DNA from: a virus
Lineage: Duplodnaviria > Caudoviricetes
Length of the DNA: 64,000 nt
Virus record (IMG/VR): IMGVR_UViG_2915597211_000007
Coordinates: 4,560-68,559 of that record
Strand: one strand, 5' to 3'
Below are positions 453 through 50,412 of this stretch, piece after piece. The stretch's first letter is position 1; each line of letters opens with the position of its first letter. Below the pieces are notes generated by a model, which was given only the letters and a program-made list of their open reading frames with translations, was not told the DNA's origin and did not search any database. A program made the position numbers and the translations under genes.

Positions 453-614
453 TTATCCTACAAGCGATCCAGTTTCGATTGGTCCGAGGTTTCGCATTCC
501 GGTTTCAATCGGACCGTGTACGGACGCTCCCGTTTCGATAGGACCTGCATAAGCTGCTGTCGCTACTGCCATAACCACCACAAAAATTACAAATCCAAAA
601 ATGACCTTTTTCAT
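453..614 (-). CDS. Secreted signalling propeptide with three tandem GPIETG hexapeptides (53 aa)
   Basis: Manual translation MKKVIFGFVIFVVVMAVATAAYA-GPIETG-ASVH-GPIETG-MRNL-GPIETG-SLVG; AAGGAGG SD; Sec signal ending AYA; synonymous codons differ between copies. Confidence 0.9.
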   Translation of the reverse strand: MKKVIFGFVIFVVVMAVATAAYAGPIETGASVHGPIETGMRNLGPIETGSLVG

Positions 615-2849: not shown

Positions 2850-4978
2850 CCGATCCCTCCCATTATCTTCTTGATGGCCTTTGTCGATGCGGGGTCAGCG
2901 CGAGTCAGCGTCAATTTCAGCGTTACCTTTGCGCCAGCCGGTGTCGCAGTCCCTACGAACTCATCTTCGTAAATAGTTCCGTCCCCAATCGGCACGCTCG
3001 CATTCTTCGTCATCGCCACGAAAGACTCGGCGGCATTACTCGCTACAATCGAACGCGCTGCGGCAACGGTCAGGTCGCCAGCCTCACGGTTGATCCACGT
3101 GACTATTTCCGCCGTCGTGCCGAGTGGTGGCGTGATCGTATACCGGACGACCGCCGTCTTGACTGGCGTTTGTGTTCCGGACTTTACGAACGTGAGCGTT
3201 TTTGTCTTTGCGGCACCTTTCGTATCAGTCGCGGTAAATACCACTTTGTTTGTACCGTTGGCGAGCGCAGACACAGGAACCACGTACTCGAACGTCGTAC
3301 CGGAAGGGACTCCGGCCTTTAACGGAACTGGCTCGCCACCATTGAACGCGACCGTAAGGTTAACGTTATCGTTCTCCGGGTCCGATACGGTTCCAGTGAA
3401 AACCAGCGTCTCCAATTCGGACAAGCCTGTTCGGTTCGCGTTGTATGCGTCCAGCACGATATTCGGCGGACGGTTAAGAATGACCTTGAATGAGCGTGTA
3501 TATGACGTAGAGGTTCCGCCTTGATCGTCAACCGCGTATGCATTGACGGTATACGTCGTATTCTCTGCGAGTGGTCCGGACACGTCCGTTGCGCCATCGT
3601 AGAGGCGTCCGTTTTGGAACGTCAAGACATTTGAGAACGGAATCGGTGAGACTCCGTCAGAGATTGCAGACGTGATGTTGCGGGCGGTTCCGCCATTGAT
3701 CGCGTATCTTACGGTGACTGCGTTGCCACTGTCGGGGTCGGACGCGGTGCCTGCGAGTGCGTACGTTGCGCCTTCCGTCAATGTTTGATTATCGGAAGGT
3801 GAAGTTAGCGAGAGAGTTGGCGGGTTATTTGTTTTTGGGACGAGAACAAGCGAACGGGAAGCGCCCGGTGCTGCTGAAACGGTTGTAGTAGTCATATCGC
3901 TTGATGTCTGACTTTTATTTGTGTACATGTATCTGAAAGACATCTCAAGTGCATATGAGTTACCGTAAATATCCAATATTTCTCTATAGTTTAATGGGCT
4001 TGTGCTTGAAACCTGACTAACAAAGCCATTTAGTAAAATAAACACCGTTTTATCGTGTGTTGTCGCGGTATTGGGCGGTGCGATTGTTTGTGAGGCTGTC
4101 GATGTAGTCGTGACTTGGCTAGTGTCAATCTGTTTTACATTCCTGAAACAAGTCATGTATGCAAGCCAGTTAACATTTCCGGCTGTATTGGTGAATACAG
4201 GAGGTGTTTCTGTAGCAGAAGCATATTTATAGTACACAGCGAATCTACTTCCAAACGCTACATCGTCAGCTAATTTTGTCCAACTGGAAGGTGTGGTCCC
4301 CAAGGTTCCCGATGTTGCTATGTGTGCTATTAATAAATCACCCAGTTGGTATCCTGTGGGTAGATTTAGTGTAATACTCGAGATTGAGGAAGAGTTGTTG
4401 GTTGTACCTGCCCCAACAAAATCCACTTGCTTTTTGCCTGTTGTCGGGATGGAGTAGTCGATGGTGAGGGTTGGGCGTCTCGCTTCCGTTGAAGCTTCCT
4501 TGGAGCCTACAGATCGTTGAGTATTTGTTCCGACCTCATCTATGTCTTTCAACAGAAAACCGAAGTTCGGACTGCCATTTACCCATTCTTGGACAATTGT
4601 TTTCACATCGACCTGGACAGACGCATCTGCGCTCAATGATGGGAATGATGCTTTTGGAGTTGATTCGAAAGTTGGTTGGTTATTCCAGTTTGTATTCTGA
4701 TCCCACGCACTTGTAATCTTGTGGATGCTTGTTTGTCTGGACACTGCATTTCCAACGTTATACAAATAAAGAGTGGCACTGTTAATGACCGCATTGTTTG
4801 GAATAAGGCCCAGGTCAAAAATCAGCAAGGCCCTTAATTTATCATTCAACCCAGCACTTCCATTACCCCATTGCAGGCTATCGGCGGTACCGTAAGATGA
4901 CGTTGGTGACGCTTGAACAATAAATGTATCTGAAATGGACGTGTTCAATCGTTCTAGTTTAACTACGGGCATGCGCAT
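2846..4978 (-). CDS. Tail fibre/receptor-binding protein with N-terminal DNRLRE (CBM96-like) domain and Ig-like repeats
   Basis: DTFIVQASPTSSYG...RALLIFDL..IP.NAVINSATLYLY; two N.PP-initiated Ig-like modules; position after the baseplate genes. Confidence 0.7.
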   Translation of the reverse strand: MRMPVVKLERLNTSISDTFIVQASPTSSYGTADSLQWGNGSAGLNDKLRALLIFDLGLIPNNAVINSATLYLYNVGNAVSRQTSIHKITSAWDQNTNWNNQPTFESTPKASFPSLSADASVQVDVKTIVQEWVNGSPNFGFLLKDIDEVGTNTQRSVGSKEASTEARRPTLTIDYSIPTTGKKQVDFVGAGTTNNSSSISSITLNLPTGYQLGDLLIAHIATSGTLGTTPSSWTKLADDVAFGSRFAVYYKYASATETPPVFTNTAGNVNWLAYMTCFRNVKQIDTSQVTTTSTASQTIAPPNTATTHDKTVFILLNGFVSQVSSTSPLNYREILDIYGNSYALEMSFRYMYTNKSQTSSDMTTTTVSAAPGASRSLVLVPKTNNPPTLSLTSPSDNQTLTEGATYALAGTASDPDSGNAVTVRYAINGGTARNITSAISDGVSPIPFSNVLTFQNGRLYDGATDVSGPLAENTTYTVNAYAVDDQGGTSTSYTRSFKVILNRPPNIVLDAYNANRTGLSELETLVFTGTVSDPENDNVNLTVAFNGGEPVPLKAGVPSGTTFEYVVPVSALANGTNKVVFTATDTKGAAKTKTLTFVKSGTQTPVKTAVVRYTITPPLGTTAEIVTWINREAGDLTVAAARSIVASNAAESFVAMTKNASVPIGDGTIYEDEFVGTATPAGAKVTLKLTLTRADPASTKAIKKIMGGIG

Positions 4979-26066: not shown

Positions 26067-26229
26067 ATCTCGCCACCTCCCGTCCTAGTCCTTTCGACAG
26101 GGACTCGGCAAATCCTTCCAGCGTTCGCACCACGAACTTATTCGCGATCCCAACGCTAGGACCCGTCAAAGCAGGTCGTTCGCGGAGCGGAATGGCGTTT
26201 TTAACCGTAGCCAGCGGTGAGATTACGTT

Positions 26230-26322
26230 TTACCAGCCGGGACCGCCGTCAGCGAATGCGCTGGATGCTACGGACAGAGCCGCGACGATTGCGAAGAATG
26301 CTGTGATAGCGAATTTTTTCAT
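26230..26322 (-). CDS. Secreted propeptide releasing the hexapeptide DGGPGW (30 aa)
   Basis: Manual translation MKKFAITAFFAIVAALSVASSAFA-DGGPGW; GGAGG SD; Sec signal ending AFA. Confidence 0.82.
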   Translation of the reverse strand: MKKFAITAFFAIVAALSVASSAFADGGPGW

Positions 26323-26455
26323 ACGTAATTACCTCCGTTTGGTCCGCGTGTGCGGCCGATTATTTTTGCGTTGTGTATGCGCGCCTCGTCCGGACGGTAC
26401 CGGAGTCATCGGCGAAGGTCTCATAACGTATAGATACGAGATTGCGCTAAAGTCG

Positions 26456-27016
26456 TTATTTTTCAATAAAATAGCGGACAACTTCGCCAGGTTTCGTATC
26501 TTTTTCGTATTGTATGCGTCGTTTTTCGTTACGTATCTTCGCGTTCTTATCTACGAACATCATCTCGCGATCGGACCGTTTTCTTCTCGTCGGCTTTCGA
26601 TAACTGGCACCGTCCGATCCGATCTCTTCCGCCATCTTTTCCGAAGTCTCAGCGCCCATACCGCCTTGTCCGCGTTGGTGCTTGCCCTCACGTCGGCGAG
26701 CGAGTTGGATGTCGCTCAATATTGGATACTCGTGGCGCGATACCTTATGCTCGTCGTCGTCCGTTAATTCTTCATGAAGTATGGCGTTCGTTAGGCGTTC
26801 CAGATCGAACGCGTCCGGCAATTCTCCGACACTTTCAAAATACTCCGTTATCAGAGCGTCGACTTCGCGATTACGGCTAGTTCGGTTGGTTAAAGCGGGC
26901 ACTCCCGCACGAATACCGTCAATTAACTCATCGACTGCGACGGAGAATGCGGATTTATAGTCGGCATGATTGCGGAAATACTTCGGTGTGATTGCGTGTT
27001 GGTTGCGTTTATTCAT
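26456..27016 (-). CDS. Hypothetical protein
   Basis: 186-aa ORF in operon; no family recognised. Confidence 0.7.
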   Translation of the reverse strand: MNKRNQHAITPKYFRNHADYKSAFSVAVDELIDGIRAGVPALTNRTSRNREVDALITEYFESVGELPDAFDLERLTNAILHEELTDDDEHKVSRHEYPILSDIQLARRREGKHQRGQGGMGAETSEKMAEEIGSDGASYRKPTRRKRSDREMMFVDKNAKIRNEKRRIQYEKDTKPGEVVRYFIEK

Positions 27017-47796: not shown

Positions 47797-48414
47797 TCAT
47801 ACCGTGTAATAATTGCGTTGGTCCCCGAAACGATTGGCGTCGTATCTACGTGACAAATAGCGCAATTTATTCTTCACGGTTTTGTCAGACAATCCGAGCG
47901 ATTTGGCGATCGCGACGAAAGGTTGTCCGGCAAGAAACAATTTGACAACTTTACATGTGATGTCATCGGTTCCGGTGACGAGAAAAGAGAGTAGTTCCCG
48001 CTGCTCTCTTTTCTTTTGTACCTCCACTACCATACCTTCGACATTTCCAGTGAGAGAGAGACTCTCGTCCTCGACTTGAGATATTGGCGTATCTCCATCG
48101 TCAGGCGCGATATCTAATGTGCAATCTTCTCGAACTCTTGCTCGATTACGTCTCAAGTCCCTGATCCTGTTTCGAATACTTCTAGTGAGGAAGTTTTCAA
48201 AGTTCCCGATTGACGGGTCAAACTTATCGAGCGCATCCATTAATGTCTGATCGTAAACAGCCTGTACATCATGTTGTCCAGTGCGTGTAAACCGCTCGTC
48301 ATTTCGTCGTTTGGCTGGCGTCCATCCAACGCTGACTATTCGGTATATTTCCTCGAAAACCTCTTCGTTTCGTGAAGCCTGATAACTGACGACTAACTCG
48401 TTTATCCCGTTCAC
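47797..48414 (-). CDS. Phage RNA polymerase sigma factor (sigma-70 family, compact)
   Basis: Region 2 DALDKFDPSIGNFENFLTRSIRNRIRD; region 4 FVAIAKSLGLSDKTVKNKL. Confidence 0.88.
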   Translation of the reverse strand: MNGINELVVSYQASRNEEVFEEIYRIVSVGWTPAKRRNDERFTRTGQHDVQAVYDQTLMDALDKFDPSIGNFENFLTRSIRNRIRDLRRNRARVREDCTLDIAPDDGDTPISQVEDESLSLTGNVEGMVVEVQKKREQRELLSFLVTGTDDITCKVVKLFLAGQPFVAIAKSLGLSDKTVKNKLRYLSRRYDANRFGDQRNYYTV

Positions 48415-48433
48415 TTTTCGTCCTCCTTTGTCC

Positions 48434-48471
48434 TACACTTAGTTATACGCCGCAAATCAGTAGCCTCGGAA
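48434..48471 (-). promoter_or_regulatory. Conserved promoter-like motif, copy 1 (upstream of the sigma gene)
   Basis: TTCCGAGGCT-N10-GGCGTATAACTAAGTGTA; near-identical copy at 62659-62697. Confidence 0.65.
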
Positions 48472-48499
48472 AAGATTCGGAAGATTTTTCATAAAATAG

Positions 48500-48538
48500 T
48501 TTGGATGAACAGATTAAATCATTTTTAACACATCCAAA
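48500..48538. promoter_or_regulatory. Long-spaced inverted repeat, candidate RRNPP receptor operator
   Basis: TTTGGATG-N23-CATCCAAA between the propeptide terminator and the sigma gene. Confidence 0.5.
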
Positions 48539-48713
48539 ATATACGACTACCGATCCGGCATGATTAAATACTAACATTTAGGAATTTAGAAATCAGTACT
48601 GTATTGTCGTAATAATTTTGATTTTTTATTGCAAAAAATAACTTTTTCCCGATAATTCGACACTAACAACCTTATAACGACACAAATTAGATGGATACTG
48701 TTGTCTTTTAAAC

Positions 48714-48743
48714 AAAAAAAACCTGCGAAACTAAGTTCGCAGG
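48714..48743 (-). terminator. Intrinsic terminator after the receptor-propeptide operon
   Basis: CCTGCGAA-N6-TTCGCAGG-TTTTTTTT. Confidence 0.88.
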
Positions 48744-48786
48744 GAAGCTCCACACACTTTCAATTATTAGTGTTAACCACTTCGAA

Positions 48787-48906
48787 TTACATTAGAGAAT
48801 TTTCAACGGCAGCTTGTCCAGTTTCGATCGGTCCTGTTGGTTCGAGGATTATAGGGACAGATACTAAAAGTACTATGGCAACAAAAATTGTGAGTAATTT
48901 TTTCAC
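48787..48906 (-). CDS. Cognate secreted propeptide (AimP-like) containing GPIETG (39 aa)
   Basis: Manual translation MKKLLTIFVAIVLLVSVPIILEPT-GPIETG-QAAVENSLM; GGAGG SD and GTG start 17 nt after the receptor stop. Confidence 0.9.
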   Translation of the reverse strand: MKKLLTIFVAIVLLVSVPIILEPTGPIETGQAAVENSLM

Positions 48907-48922
48907 AAAAACGCACCTCCGT

Positions 48923-50227
48923 TCAATTATAGTAGCTCTCTAATAACTCGATTTCTGCTTTTTCTTCGTCAGTAACAAGGTGCCCGTACTTTGTTAGAAC
49001 TTTGATAAATAGAAGTGCCACGGTCACTAACTCATCATTTAATTGCTTGCCTCGTAATAATCTACAGCTTTCTAAAAGGTTAGTAATGATTTCTCGCGGA
49101 TCACCTCCAGTCGACAGTAGTATCGCAGCGACGTTTCTTTTGTGAAGTGCAACTTCATTCATAAATCTTATCGGGCACTCTTCGGATTGATTTAATTTCT
49201 CTACTAGTCGATTAGTTTCCTCTACTAGAAGTTGGGCTTTAACAATATCTCCACTTTGATATTCCATGAAAGCAAAGTCTGTTAAAATATTTAATCTCCC
49301 TAAATCATCTTTTGGCATTTCAGAAAGAACTAATTCCCAATTATCTCTTGCTTGGGAAAATTCTTTACTCAACCAAAGCGCTCTTGCCATACTAGCCTTA
49401 CTGTCTATCTGAATAGCACTCCCCAATTCCGAAAGCTCGTAACACTCCTGATACATTTCAAGTGCTTTATTGAAATTTTTCAACTGGCAATATATATGCC
49501 CAAGAGTGTTATGTAATCTCCATTTATCGTTTGAACTTGCGCCTGCACAGATTTTCCTCGCGGCTGCTCCAATTTCAACGCCCTTTGTATAGTTCCTTGT
49601 AAAATAACAACACATCATAAACTCAAGGAGCACCGTAAAACGTTGATTTAAATTTTTAAACTCATATCTTGATGTTATTTTCTTAAAGAGAGTTAATGCA
49701 ATTTGAAAGTTACGTTCATCTCGAGAAAATTTGTAAAACAAATCCAATTCTTCGAATACTTCTTTTTTTGATATTAAATCTAGTTGTAATGCTACAAAAT
49801 CGACCATCTTTTCGTGTCCCACGGTTTCGTTTATTGCAACCATTATCTTTAGTAGTAGTAACATTGATTTCATGTAGTAAAACTCTTTAGTCTTAGTATT
49901 AGTTGTTCGCTTAGCCAGTCGAAGAATTTTATAGATGACTAGTCTAGTGGAGTCATAATCTCTGATACTGAAAAAATGTAGAGCAAGTTCAAACAGTTCA
50001 TGCTTGTCATCTTGTGCTCGGAGGTACAAATCTCGAGACTCGAGAATGCTGAATTTGAGAATATCGGATAACAGAATTAGTGTTTCTGTTTTGGGAACGG
50101 TGTAGTTACGCTCAATAGATGCGTAATGACTTTTATTCATTCGTCTAGTGATTTCCACATCTTCTTGTTTAAGTCGCTTTATAACCCTTTTGTTCCGGAG
50201 AAAAAAACCTAGTGTTAAGGTAGTCAC
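48923..50227 (-). CDS. RRNPP-family peptide receptor (XRE-HTH plus TPR; arbitrium AimR-like role)
   Basis: N-terminal LGFFLRNKR...LKQEDV...HYASIERNYTVP HTH; TPR helices (LHNTLGHIYCQLKNFNKALEMYQECYE); adjacent propeptide; probable GTG at 50227 (track 50296). Confidence 0.88.
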   Translation of the reverse strand: MTTLTLGFFLRNKRVIKRLKQEDVEITRRMNKSHYASIERNYTVPKTETLILLSDILKFSILESRDLYLRAQDDKHELFELALHFFSIRDYDSTRLVIYKILRLAKRTTNTKTKEFYYMKSMLLLLKIMVAINETVGHEKMVDFVALQLDLISKKEVFEELDLFYKFSRDERNFQIALTLFKKITSRYEFKNLNQRFTVLLEFMMCCYFTRNYTKGVEIGAAARKICAGASSNDKWRLHNTLGHIYCQLKNFNKALEMYQECYELSELGSAIQIDSKASMARALWLSKEFSQARDNWELVLSEMPKDDLGRLNILTDFAFMEYQSGDIVKAQLLVEETNRLVEKLNQSEECPIRFMNEVALHKRNVAAILLSTGGDPREIITNLLESCRLLRGKQLNDELVTVALLFIKVLTKYGHLVTDEEKAEIELLESYYN

Positions 50228-50270
50228 TAACAATTTCCCCCATTCAGTATATCTTGGTGTCAATATCATA

Positions 50271-50288
50271 ATTCCTATATTTAGGAAT
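50271..50288. promoter_or_regulatory. Palindromic operator candidate in the divergent receptor/cro intergenic region
   Basis: ATTCCTA-TATT-TAGGAAT; ATTCCTATATTT repeated at 50343; ATTTAGGAAT also at 48576. Confidence 0.5.
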
Positions 50289-50412
50289 GTCAACATTAAT
50301 GAATGTGCATATTCAAAAATATAAAAATTTATACAAATTGGTATTCCTATATTTCCAAACAGGAATTTCTAAGATATAATTAAACTTAGTCCTACTATAG
50401 GAGGTTCTTATA

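Follow-up and report, generated by a model that had tools for sequence, protein, structure and literature searches.

Why would a phage carry a gene for a secreted signalling peptide that it seems unable to hear? The question is raised by a 30-codon open reading frame in a Brevibacillus prophage (Duplodnaviria; Caudoviricetes), whose predicted product is little more than a signal peptide followed by the hexapeptide DGGPGW. We examined a window of 64,000 nucleotides (positions 4,560 to 68,559 of the IMG/VR provirus record IMGVR_UViG_2915597211_000007; the phage is called W here), together with the whole 68,559-bp record, which lies in a 5.28-Mb contig of NCBI assembly GCA_014526365.1. Relatives of the flanking genes and of the terminase are from Brevibacillus. 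A sequence-only reading had described the ORF as an orphan secreted propeptide, with the same architecture as a GPIETG-encoding satellite gene elsewhere in the phage and no adjacent TPR receptor, and had suggested that it might jam or mimic the RRNPP/Rap system of a host or co-resident element, or else antagonise the phage's own receptor. The description of the ORF is confirmed by our analysis. The interpretation is partly supported, in that mimicry of another element's signal agrees with what we found whereas antagonism of the phage's own receptor is not favoured.

Results

The ORF and its setting

The features on which the argument rests are as follows, all on the minus strand of the window.

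26230..26322 (-): 30-aa satellite pheromone gene (signal peptide, DGGPGW, TAA)
26251..26322 (-): predicted Sec-type signal peptide, with MKK, a hydrophobic core and a SAFA cleavage motif
26233..26250 (-): codons of the predicted mature hexapeptide DGGPGW
26332..26336 (-): Shine-Dalgarno sequence GGAGG, 9 nt upstream of the ATG
26113..26418 (-): island of about 306 nt conserved with phage G1 (about 93% identity), inside flanks that cannot be aligned
26160..26178 (-): conserved GC-rich hairpin with a UUYG-type loop, downstream of the ORF
48923..50296 (-): the phage's only peptide receptor (HTH_3 + TPR), paired with GPIETG
48787..48906 (-): cognate 39-aa propeptide of that receptor (internal GPIETG, GTG start)
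453..614 (-): own-language satellite of 53 aa, a signal peptide ending AYA followed by 3x GPIETG, just after the lysis genes

The ORF starts with ATG and reads MKKFAITAFFAIVAALSVASSAFADGGPGW, ending in TAA. The first 24 residues have the textbook layout of a Gram-positive Sec/SPase I signal, with two lysines in the n-region, a hydrophobic core of about 17 residues, and a c-region S-A-F-A that places small residues at -3 and -1 with serines just before, and exactly six residues then follow before the stop; this is a reading of the sequence supported by hydropathy heuristics, and no dedicated signal-peptide predictor was applied. The string from the Shine-Dalgarno sequence to the fifth coding base, GGAGG-N-TTACGT-ATG-AAA-AA, is shared with the 3x GPIETG satellite, beyond which the two genes cannot be aligned. 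The window holds four small ORFs with a Shine-Dalgarno sequence, at least two K/R residues and a hydrophobic core, against 0.08 expected from a first-order Markov simulation, and three of the four are the pheromone-like genes. A single TPR receptor is present in the window and in the whole provirus record; it has HTH_3 plus TPR_12/TPR_2 domains by Pfam and lies 22.6 kb from the ORF, so the usual adjacency of an RRNPP-type propeptide to its TPR receptor does not hold here. The ORF does have the other sequence features of such propeptides, a short length (about 30–60 aa) with an N-terminal Sec-type signal sequence, and a mature peptide of 5–10 aa, usually the C-terminal residues, that is conserved with its receptor type.

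No sigma-70-type promoter was found upstream of the ORF, so the timing of expression is not known, and the phage-sigma promoter motif described in the sequence-only reading (TTCCGAGGCT...) is not upstream of it either. Rfam gave no match at gathering thresholds or at permissive E-values, around the ORF or in the related loci L005 and L006. For the downstream hairpin, RNAalifold on W, the related phages G1 and G3, and L005 (introduced below) gives 7 nested pairs, one with a compensatory change; no U-tract follows, and the hairpin, to which we assign no role, could be a 3′ end or a stability element. Pfam, NCBIfam and PHROGs give no function for the neighbouring genes: phrog_13088 is of unknown function, and a 142-aa protein has a BC1881-family tail.

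A conserved gene of a narrow phage clade

The ORF is not a called gene in the protein collections, and no close DNA or protein relatives of the flank were found in the INPHARED phage collection, nor in IMG/VR with the single upstream 186-aa protein as query. Following the 186-aa protein into other contigs gave a syntenic 33-aa ORF with the same tail in a JGI metagenome phage contig (L6). Two DNA patterns were then scanned over IMG/VR, one built on AFA-DGGPGW-stop and one built only on the signal peptide and therefore blind to the tail, and both returned the same three further phages, G1, G2 and G3, at 100%, 100% and 99% CheckV completeness; the pattern that was blind to the tail recovered only DGGPGW tails. 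A metagenome scan with a signal-peptide-based pattern returned only chance hits. All five intact copies lie at the same site, after the sigma-like and 186-aa genes and before a variable set of genes, and the sequence CAAACGGAGGTA is conserved in all of them.

Loss of the tail in homologues was among the grounds named beforehand for discarding the idea, and the tail is not lost: all five copies end in DGGPGW. Between the W/G1 clade and the G2/G3/L6 clade the flanks cannot be aligned and the 186-aa proteins are 41–50% identical, yet the ORF is kept; around the island shared by W and G1, too, the upstream 186-aa proteins are only 41% identical. Of the last 24 codons 11 vary, eight of them only synonymously; the other three change the residue, all in the signal peptide (one V/I and two A/T/I positions). 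Three of the six tail codons vary synonymously and none varies non-synonymously. Between the clades pS is 0.31–0.47 and pN is 0.04–0.08 (pN/pS about 0.1–0.2), and the block FFAI[VI]AALSVASSAFA is conserved in all copies. The synonymous divergence lies mostly between two clades that each contain a receptor-bearing phage, and within the G2/G3/L6 clade there are too few substitutions to show ongoing selection, so that selection specifically in the receptor-less lineages (W, G2 and G3) is not demonstrated. A sixth copy, in a Brevibacillus sp. NL20B1 prophage (L005), has lost its start and first codons, carries a 12-nt internal deletion and has GGAGG changed to GGAAG, which is what relaxed selection would look like.

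The syntenic loci of 16 more distant relatives of the 186-aa protein (Neobacillus, Paenibacillus, Brevibacillus sp. SYP-B805 and others), and of B. laterosporus prophages, have no such ORF. This is therefore a protein-coding accessory gene of a narrow phage clade, constrained on the peptide rather than on the DNA.

DGGPGW is the cognate-position peptide of a receptor in two sister phages

A search of other mobile elements and of host genomes for secreted ORFs with DGGPGW next to TPR receptors had been proposed as a check on the sequence-only reading. A six-frame motif scan of the four complete phages showed a second DGGPGW-stop in G1, where it ends a 39-aa ORF (L014:11674-11793 -; tail ...LNDGGPGW) with a signal peptide, its own Shine-Dalgarno sequence and a clean terminator. 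This ORF lies 15 nt downstream of a 430-aa gene (L014:11809-13101 -), with a Cro-like gene diverging on the other side, at exactly the position where W has its GPIETG module, between the primase-like and sigma-like genes of the lysis-lysogeny locus. The G1 cassette has 38–41% GC in a phage of about 52% GC. On the L6 contig, the third-closest relative of the 430-aa protein (54% identity) is followed by a 40-aa propeptide (L100:4340-4462 +) ending ...TTNDGGPGW. In both phages the hexapeptide of the receptor-adjacent propeptide is encoded with different codons from those of the satellite, and both phages also carry the satellite. An IMG/VR-wide scan for DGGPGW-stop found no other secreted ORF, and DGGPGW-type receptors are rare in the collections searched, only G1 and L6 having been found. 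No propeptide ending in DGGPGW was found in 61 Brevibacillaceae species genomes, so a host chromosomal source is not supported; the genome of W's own host was not searched.

The AlphaFold model of the 430-aa protein is confident (pLDDT 94) and predicts a short N-terminal helical domain followed by a TPR superhelix, with NprR-NprX (Z 18.7), Rap-Phr (Z 17–18) and AimR (Z 16) among the best structural matches, although these are tied with generic TPR proteins. The evidence for an N-terminal HTH domain is thinner: the HTH_3 match has E 0.0076, below the Pfam cut-off, while profile positions 10–70 hit small Cro/CI-like HTH proteins, and together these observations leave the presence of the domain undecided. 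An exhaustive HMMER search found at least 150 clusters of relatives at 50% identity, mostly 415–470 aa; a broad alignment of these receptors contains no conserved stretch. The profile hits 43 of 61 Brevibacillaceae species genomes, up to 16 times each and often in tandem, and also hits Paenibacillus.

Short ORFs of 39–54 aa lie downstream of many members, and reading them gave secreted propeptides with the C-terminal tails EGGPGW (locus L061, next to the receptor 58% identical to that of G1), DNGPGW (L063/L067), EDGPGW (L064), DIGERG, DGGERP and EEGPRW, and many of the form x-HG-x-GG. Family propeptides in L064, L070 and L072 place one pheromone unit directly after the A-x-A site and a second at the C-terminus, so that the satellite's layout of signal peptide plus unit is a natural minimal form.

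The window phage has no recognisable receptor for DGGPGW

The receptor profile finds only small Cro/CI-like HTH proteins in W, G2 and G3, and tblastn finds no remnant of a DGGPGW-type receptor in any of the three. TPR_12 hits only W's own receptor, and G2 and G3, which have no receptor at all, contain no unexplained gene of 350–460 aa. W's receptor is not detectably related in sequence to the DGGPGW-type family (BLASTP E 0.026 over 39 residues; profile score 6.8 bits), and the 3x GPIETG satellite of W has no counterpart in G1–G3. Of the five intact satellites, two therefore sit in phages with the matching receptor and three in phages without it. We also asked whether G1 and W are co-resident prophages of one strain, and in the sequenced assemblies (GCA_001748185.1 and GCA_014526365.1, respectively) they are not; W and a phage listening to DGGPGW were not found in the same sequenced strain.

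Discussion

The ORF is best explained as a minimal, receptor-less ('satellite') pheromone gene of an RRNPP/Alo-like, arbitrium-style peptide system. What the comparisons establish is that the gene is conserved, that its tail equals the cognate-position peptide of a sister-phage receptor, that W has no such receptor, and that the two-unit propeptides of the family provide a precedent for its design. The rest is inference, namely that the 30-aa product is exported by Sec, that signal peptidase I cuts after AFA to release DGGPGW with no further processing, and that neighbouring cells import the hexapeptide through Opp, where it binds a receptor; expression, secretion, processing and binding were not measured, and jamming itself was not tested. 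In this view W has swapped the DGGPGW module for a GPIETG-speaking receptor of a different family but has kept the satellite, and the peptide would act on DGGPGW-type or near-dialect receptors (EGGPGW, EDGPGW, DNGPGW) of competing phages, prophages or other elements in Brevibacillus, biasing them as if many kin infections had already happened. In arbitrium logic that means towards lysogeny or dormancy, which would benefit the emitter. In G1 and L6 the same gene would simply be a second, own-language signal source in the middle/late region, in parallel with W's own 3x GPIETG satellite. That W and G1 share only a 306-nt island around the ORF, between replaced flanks, lends further support, and a preprint showing that arbitrium phages emitting similar peptides drive early lysogeny of the receiving phage and gain fitness (Manley et al. 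2025; 10.1101/2025.10.13.681967) makes manipulation plausible. We are confident that this is a pheromone gene for DGGPGW, and only moderately so of the full statement that includes action on non-self receptors.

The main competing possibility, which we regard as less likely but cannot dismiss, is that the satellite is an evolutionary relic. The ancestor of W would have had the DGGPGW receptor module with this satellite as an own-language amplifier, and the module would then have been replaced in W or lost in G2 and G3, leaving a gene that is intact but no longer useful. The communication module does sit at one fixed locus and is clearly swapped as a cassette (the GPIETG type in W, the DGGPGW type in G1 and L6, none in G2 and G3), the G1 cassette has a deviant GC content, and the decay in L005 and the shortage of substitutions noted above are consistent with this view. 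On the other hand, three independent receptor-less phages keep an intact ORF, Shine-Dalgarno sequence and tail whereas the one relaxed copy decayed through three separate lesions, survival of the ORF as a discrete island in W suggests retention of a functional unit, and benefits of cross-talk to signal emitters have been shown experimentally in arbitrium phages. It is also possible, though unlikely on present evidence, that the peptide targets a chromosomal or plasmid-borne Alo-like receptor of the host and reprogrammes decisions such as sporulation or competence to the phage's benefit. The receptor family is very abundant in host genomes, non-phage-looking loci use EDGPGW (L064) and DNGPGW (L063/L067, next to helicase and ParA-like genes), and phage Rap-Phr systems acting on host pathways are documented (10.1101/2021.07.15.452460), but the only exact cognate pairs found are phage-borne and none of the 61 species genomes encodes a terminal DGGPGW, and the genome of W's own host was not searched.

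Two further readings appear improbable. The product could be an uncleaved membrane peptide, a signal-anchor with a six-residue external tail acting in cis in superinfection exclusion, in modulation of a transporter such as Opp, or as a type I toxin-like peptide. The hydrophobic segment is unusually conserved for a signal peptide, the product is very short (30–33 aa; at 30 aa the precursor is shorter than known Sec-dependent Phr or AimP precursors), and the gene is co-directional with lytic genes and has no adjacent receptor. However, it would be an unlikely coincidence for the tail to be exactly the cognate-position pheromone of sister-phage receptors, the A-x-A motif sits precisely before it as in the two-unit propeptides, and the site is not in the lysis module. 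Nor were antisense-RNA or toxin-type features noted: the Shine-Dalgarno sequence is strong and unpaired, synonymous sites vary so there is no nucleotide-level constraint of the kind an antisense RNA would impose, and the tail is Gly/Pro/Trp rather than charged. Antagonism or partial agonism of W's own GPIETG receptor is the least likely of all; both peptides contain G-P and both satellites share the same Shine-Dalgarno/start design, but the ORF occurs in four other phages, of which the three complete ones (G1, G2 and G3) lack that receptor, and the two receptor types show no significant sequence similarity.

The G1 and L6 receptors fit the published description of the AloR-AloP quorum-sensing systems of Paenibacillaceae (Voichek et al. 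2020, PMC7425212), which comprises an HTH with a divergent TPR-like body in a protein of 415–480 aa, a 32–50 aa secreted ORF immediately downstream, a six-residue mature peptide at the C-terminus, many copies per genome, and restriction to Paenibacillaceae including Brevibacillus; the supplement of that paper lists Brevibacillus AloR-like genes of 415–466 aa. The TPR-like body, the downstream ORF, the multiple copies and the taxonomic range agree with our observations, the HTH being subject to the doubt noted above, and the HGxGG tails resemble SHGRGG of AloP13; direct homology to a named P. polymyxa AloR was not examined. The window's ORF itself has no receptor next to it or anywhere in the phage, is shorter, and has no pro-region, the peptide following the signal-peptidase site directly. 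With arbitrium (AimR-AimP-AimX) of Bacillus SPbeta-like phages, the G1 and L6 modules share a phage-borne TPR receptor with a propeptide whose last six residues are the signal, a position at the lysis-lysogeny region next to Cro/CI-like genes, and dialects that are swapped as cassettes between related phages. Membership of the arbitrium family is neither established nor excluded by our data, since the receptor gave no sequence hit to AimR in the PDB, the structural match is at the generic TPR level, and a sigma-like gene lies downstream in place of aimX.

Complete phage-borne RRNPP pairs, multilingual elements and cross-talk are all known. Rap-Phr cassettes on phages such as phi3T and multi-system elements (PMC10075063) also give a phage more than one secreted signalling peptide, but as complete receptor-peptide pairs rather than a peptide alone. 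In the cross-talk of Manley et al. the effect comes from similarity between each phage's own cognate peptides, whereas here a dedicated extra gene encodes the exact peptide of a different receptor family. Full-text literature searches found no report of a stand-alone phage gene for another system's peptide, nor of an arbitrium phage with a separate receptor-less aimP for another phage's peptide. The short hydrophobic pheromone precursors of streptococci and enterococci (SHP, PrgQ/iCF10) are likewise very short (about 22–35 aa), begin MKK and carry the active peptide at the extreme C-terminus, beginning with Asp, but their mature peptides are hydrophobic, are cut by Eep and are exported by PptAB, in contrast to the canonical A-x-A signal-peptidase I site and polar Gly/Pro/Trp tail seen here.

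Peptide communication in phages is thought of as private, each phage carrying a matched receptor-peptide pair, and cross-talk was shown experimentally only recently, and only as a by-product of similar cognate peptides. A conserved, stand-alone gene encoding the exact peptide of another receptor family, in phages that lack that receptor, would be genomic evidence for deliberate signal emission aimed at others, and would give a simple, testable system of one 93-bp gene, one hexapeptide and known candidate receivers (G1 and L6). More tentatively, W, G2 and G3 could carry a dedicated 'deception' gene, an emitter of the lysogeny signal of rival sister phages that is kept by selection as a weapon in phage–phage competition, and this may be part of a wider arms race over peptide dialects in Brevibacillus, in which the multi-unit proteins described below could act as intracellular multi-receptor agonists or decoys. 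The work further defines a new [D/E]-x-GPGW dialect group of Alo-like systems, and extends such systems to the lysis-lysogeny locus of Brevibacillus phages.

A further observation concerns the host and mobile-element genomes. The only in-frame DGGPGW in Brevibacillaceae genomes (14 hits, against 2 for a reversed control) lie in one family of small ORFs without a signal peptide, which belong to no known family and for which the ESM Atlas gave no match. These ORFs concatenate units within one mismatch of several different receptor-adjacent tails (D-x-GERG, DLGERP, EDGPGW and DGGPGW), and one also holds GPIDTG, which is far more than composition-matched shuffles give.

Communication modules and pheromone-like genes

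The communication module is swapped as a cassette at one fixed locus, which lies between a primase-like gene and a sigma-like gene and next to a divergent Cro-like gene. This is seen when three regions are compared:

window 47797-50296 (-), the phage under study (W), with a GPIETG-type receptor
L014:10539-13486, sister phage G1, with a DGGPGW-type Alo-like receptor
L100:2625-5591, sister phage L6, with a DGGPGW-type Alo-like receptor

The related phages G2 and G3 hold nothing at this locus. The G1 cassette has 38-41% GC in a phage of about 52% GC. In W and G1 a sigma-like gene, identified by PHROGs and weak HTH matches, sits in the aimX position, while L6 has an unannotated 215-aa gene at the same place. 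W also carries, at window 453-614 (-) just downstream of the lysis genes, a 53-aa ORF consisting of a signal peptide ending AYA followed by three GPIETG units with a period of 10 residues. This looks like an own-language multi-copy pheromone satellite, and it has no counterpart in G1-G3. Alo-like propeptides that carry the same hexapeptide twice, once directly after the A-x-A signal-peptidase site and once at the C-terminus, were found at L064, L070 and L072 in Brevibacillaceae genomes (EDGPGW, DIGERG, DGGERP); two signals could be released per precursor.

We also observed, in Brevibacillaceae species genomes, a family of small ORFs (36-180 aa) that lack a signal peptide:

L049:1303-1605 (+)
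L051:1420-1668 (-)
L045:1450-1560 (-)
L047:1444-1662 (+)
L052:706-1038 (+)
L056:1351-1896 (+)

Each has its own SD, and in the one read at the DNA level (L049) the last codons (LH-stop) lie inside a terminator hairpin. These ORFs string together 2-4 units within one mismatch of different Alo-like pheromone tails (D-x-GERG, DLGERP, EDGPGW, DGGPGW), and L056 also has GPIDTG and GPGETG, whereas shuffles give at most 0.1 such units. Searches of Pfam and NCBIfam matched no family, and all homologues found are annotated as 'hypothetical protein' in Brevibacillus. In genome G012, two copies lie about 3.5 kb from receptor genes. The products could be intracellular multi-dialect agonists or decoys, or alternatively unconventional precursors.

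Surroundings of the DGGPGW satellite

A decayed copy of the satellite is present in a prophage of Brevibacillus sp. NL20B1 (L005:3930-4010). The start codon and about 6 codons are deleted, there is a 12-nt in-frame deletion, and the SD GGAGG has become GGAAG, although the 3′ half is still 100% identical to L6. Upstream of the satellite lies an intergenic stretch of about 300-400 nt (L006:3600-3990 in L6 and L005:3630-3930 in NL20B1), which is GC-rich and highly conserved between L6 and NL20B1. It has no ORF and no Rfam match, and may be a structured RNA or a regulatory region. Downstream of the satellite, at window 26160-26178 (-), there is a conserved GC-rich hairpin, present in W, G1, G3 and L005 with one compensatory pair and no U-tract. 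G2 and L6 instead have a terminator-like hairpin followed by a T-rich run. Finally, window 26456-27016 (-) encodes a 186-aa protein of unknown function (phrog_13088) with the invariant motif LHEELTD...K...EYP..S..Q, which is conserved next to sigma-like genes in prophages of Brevibacillus, Paenibacillus, Neobacillus and others.
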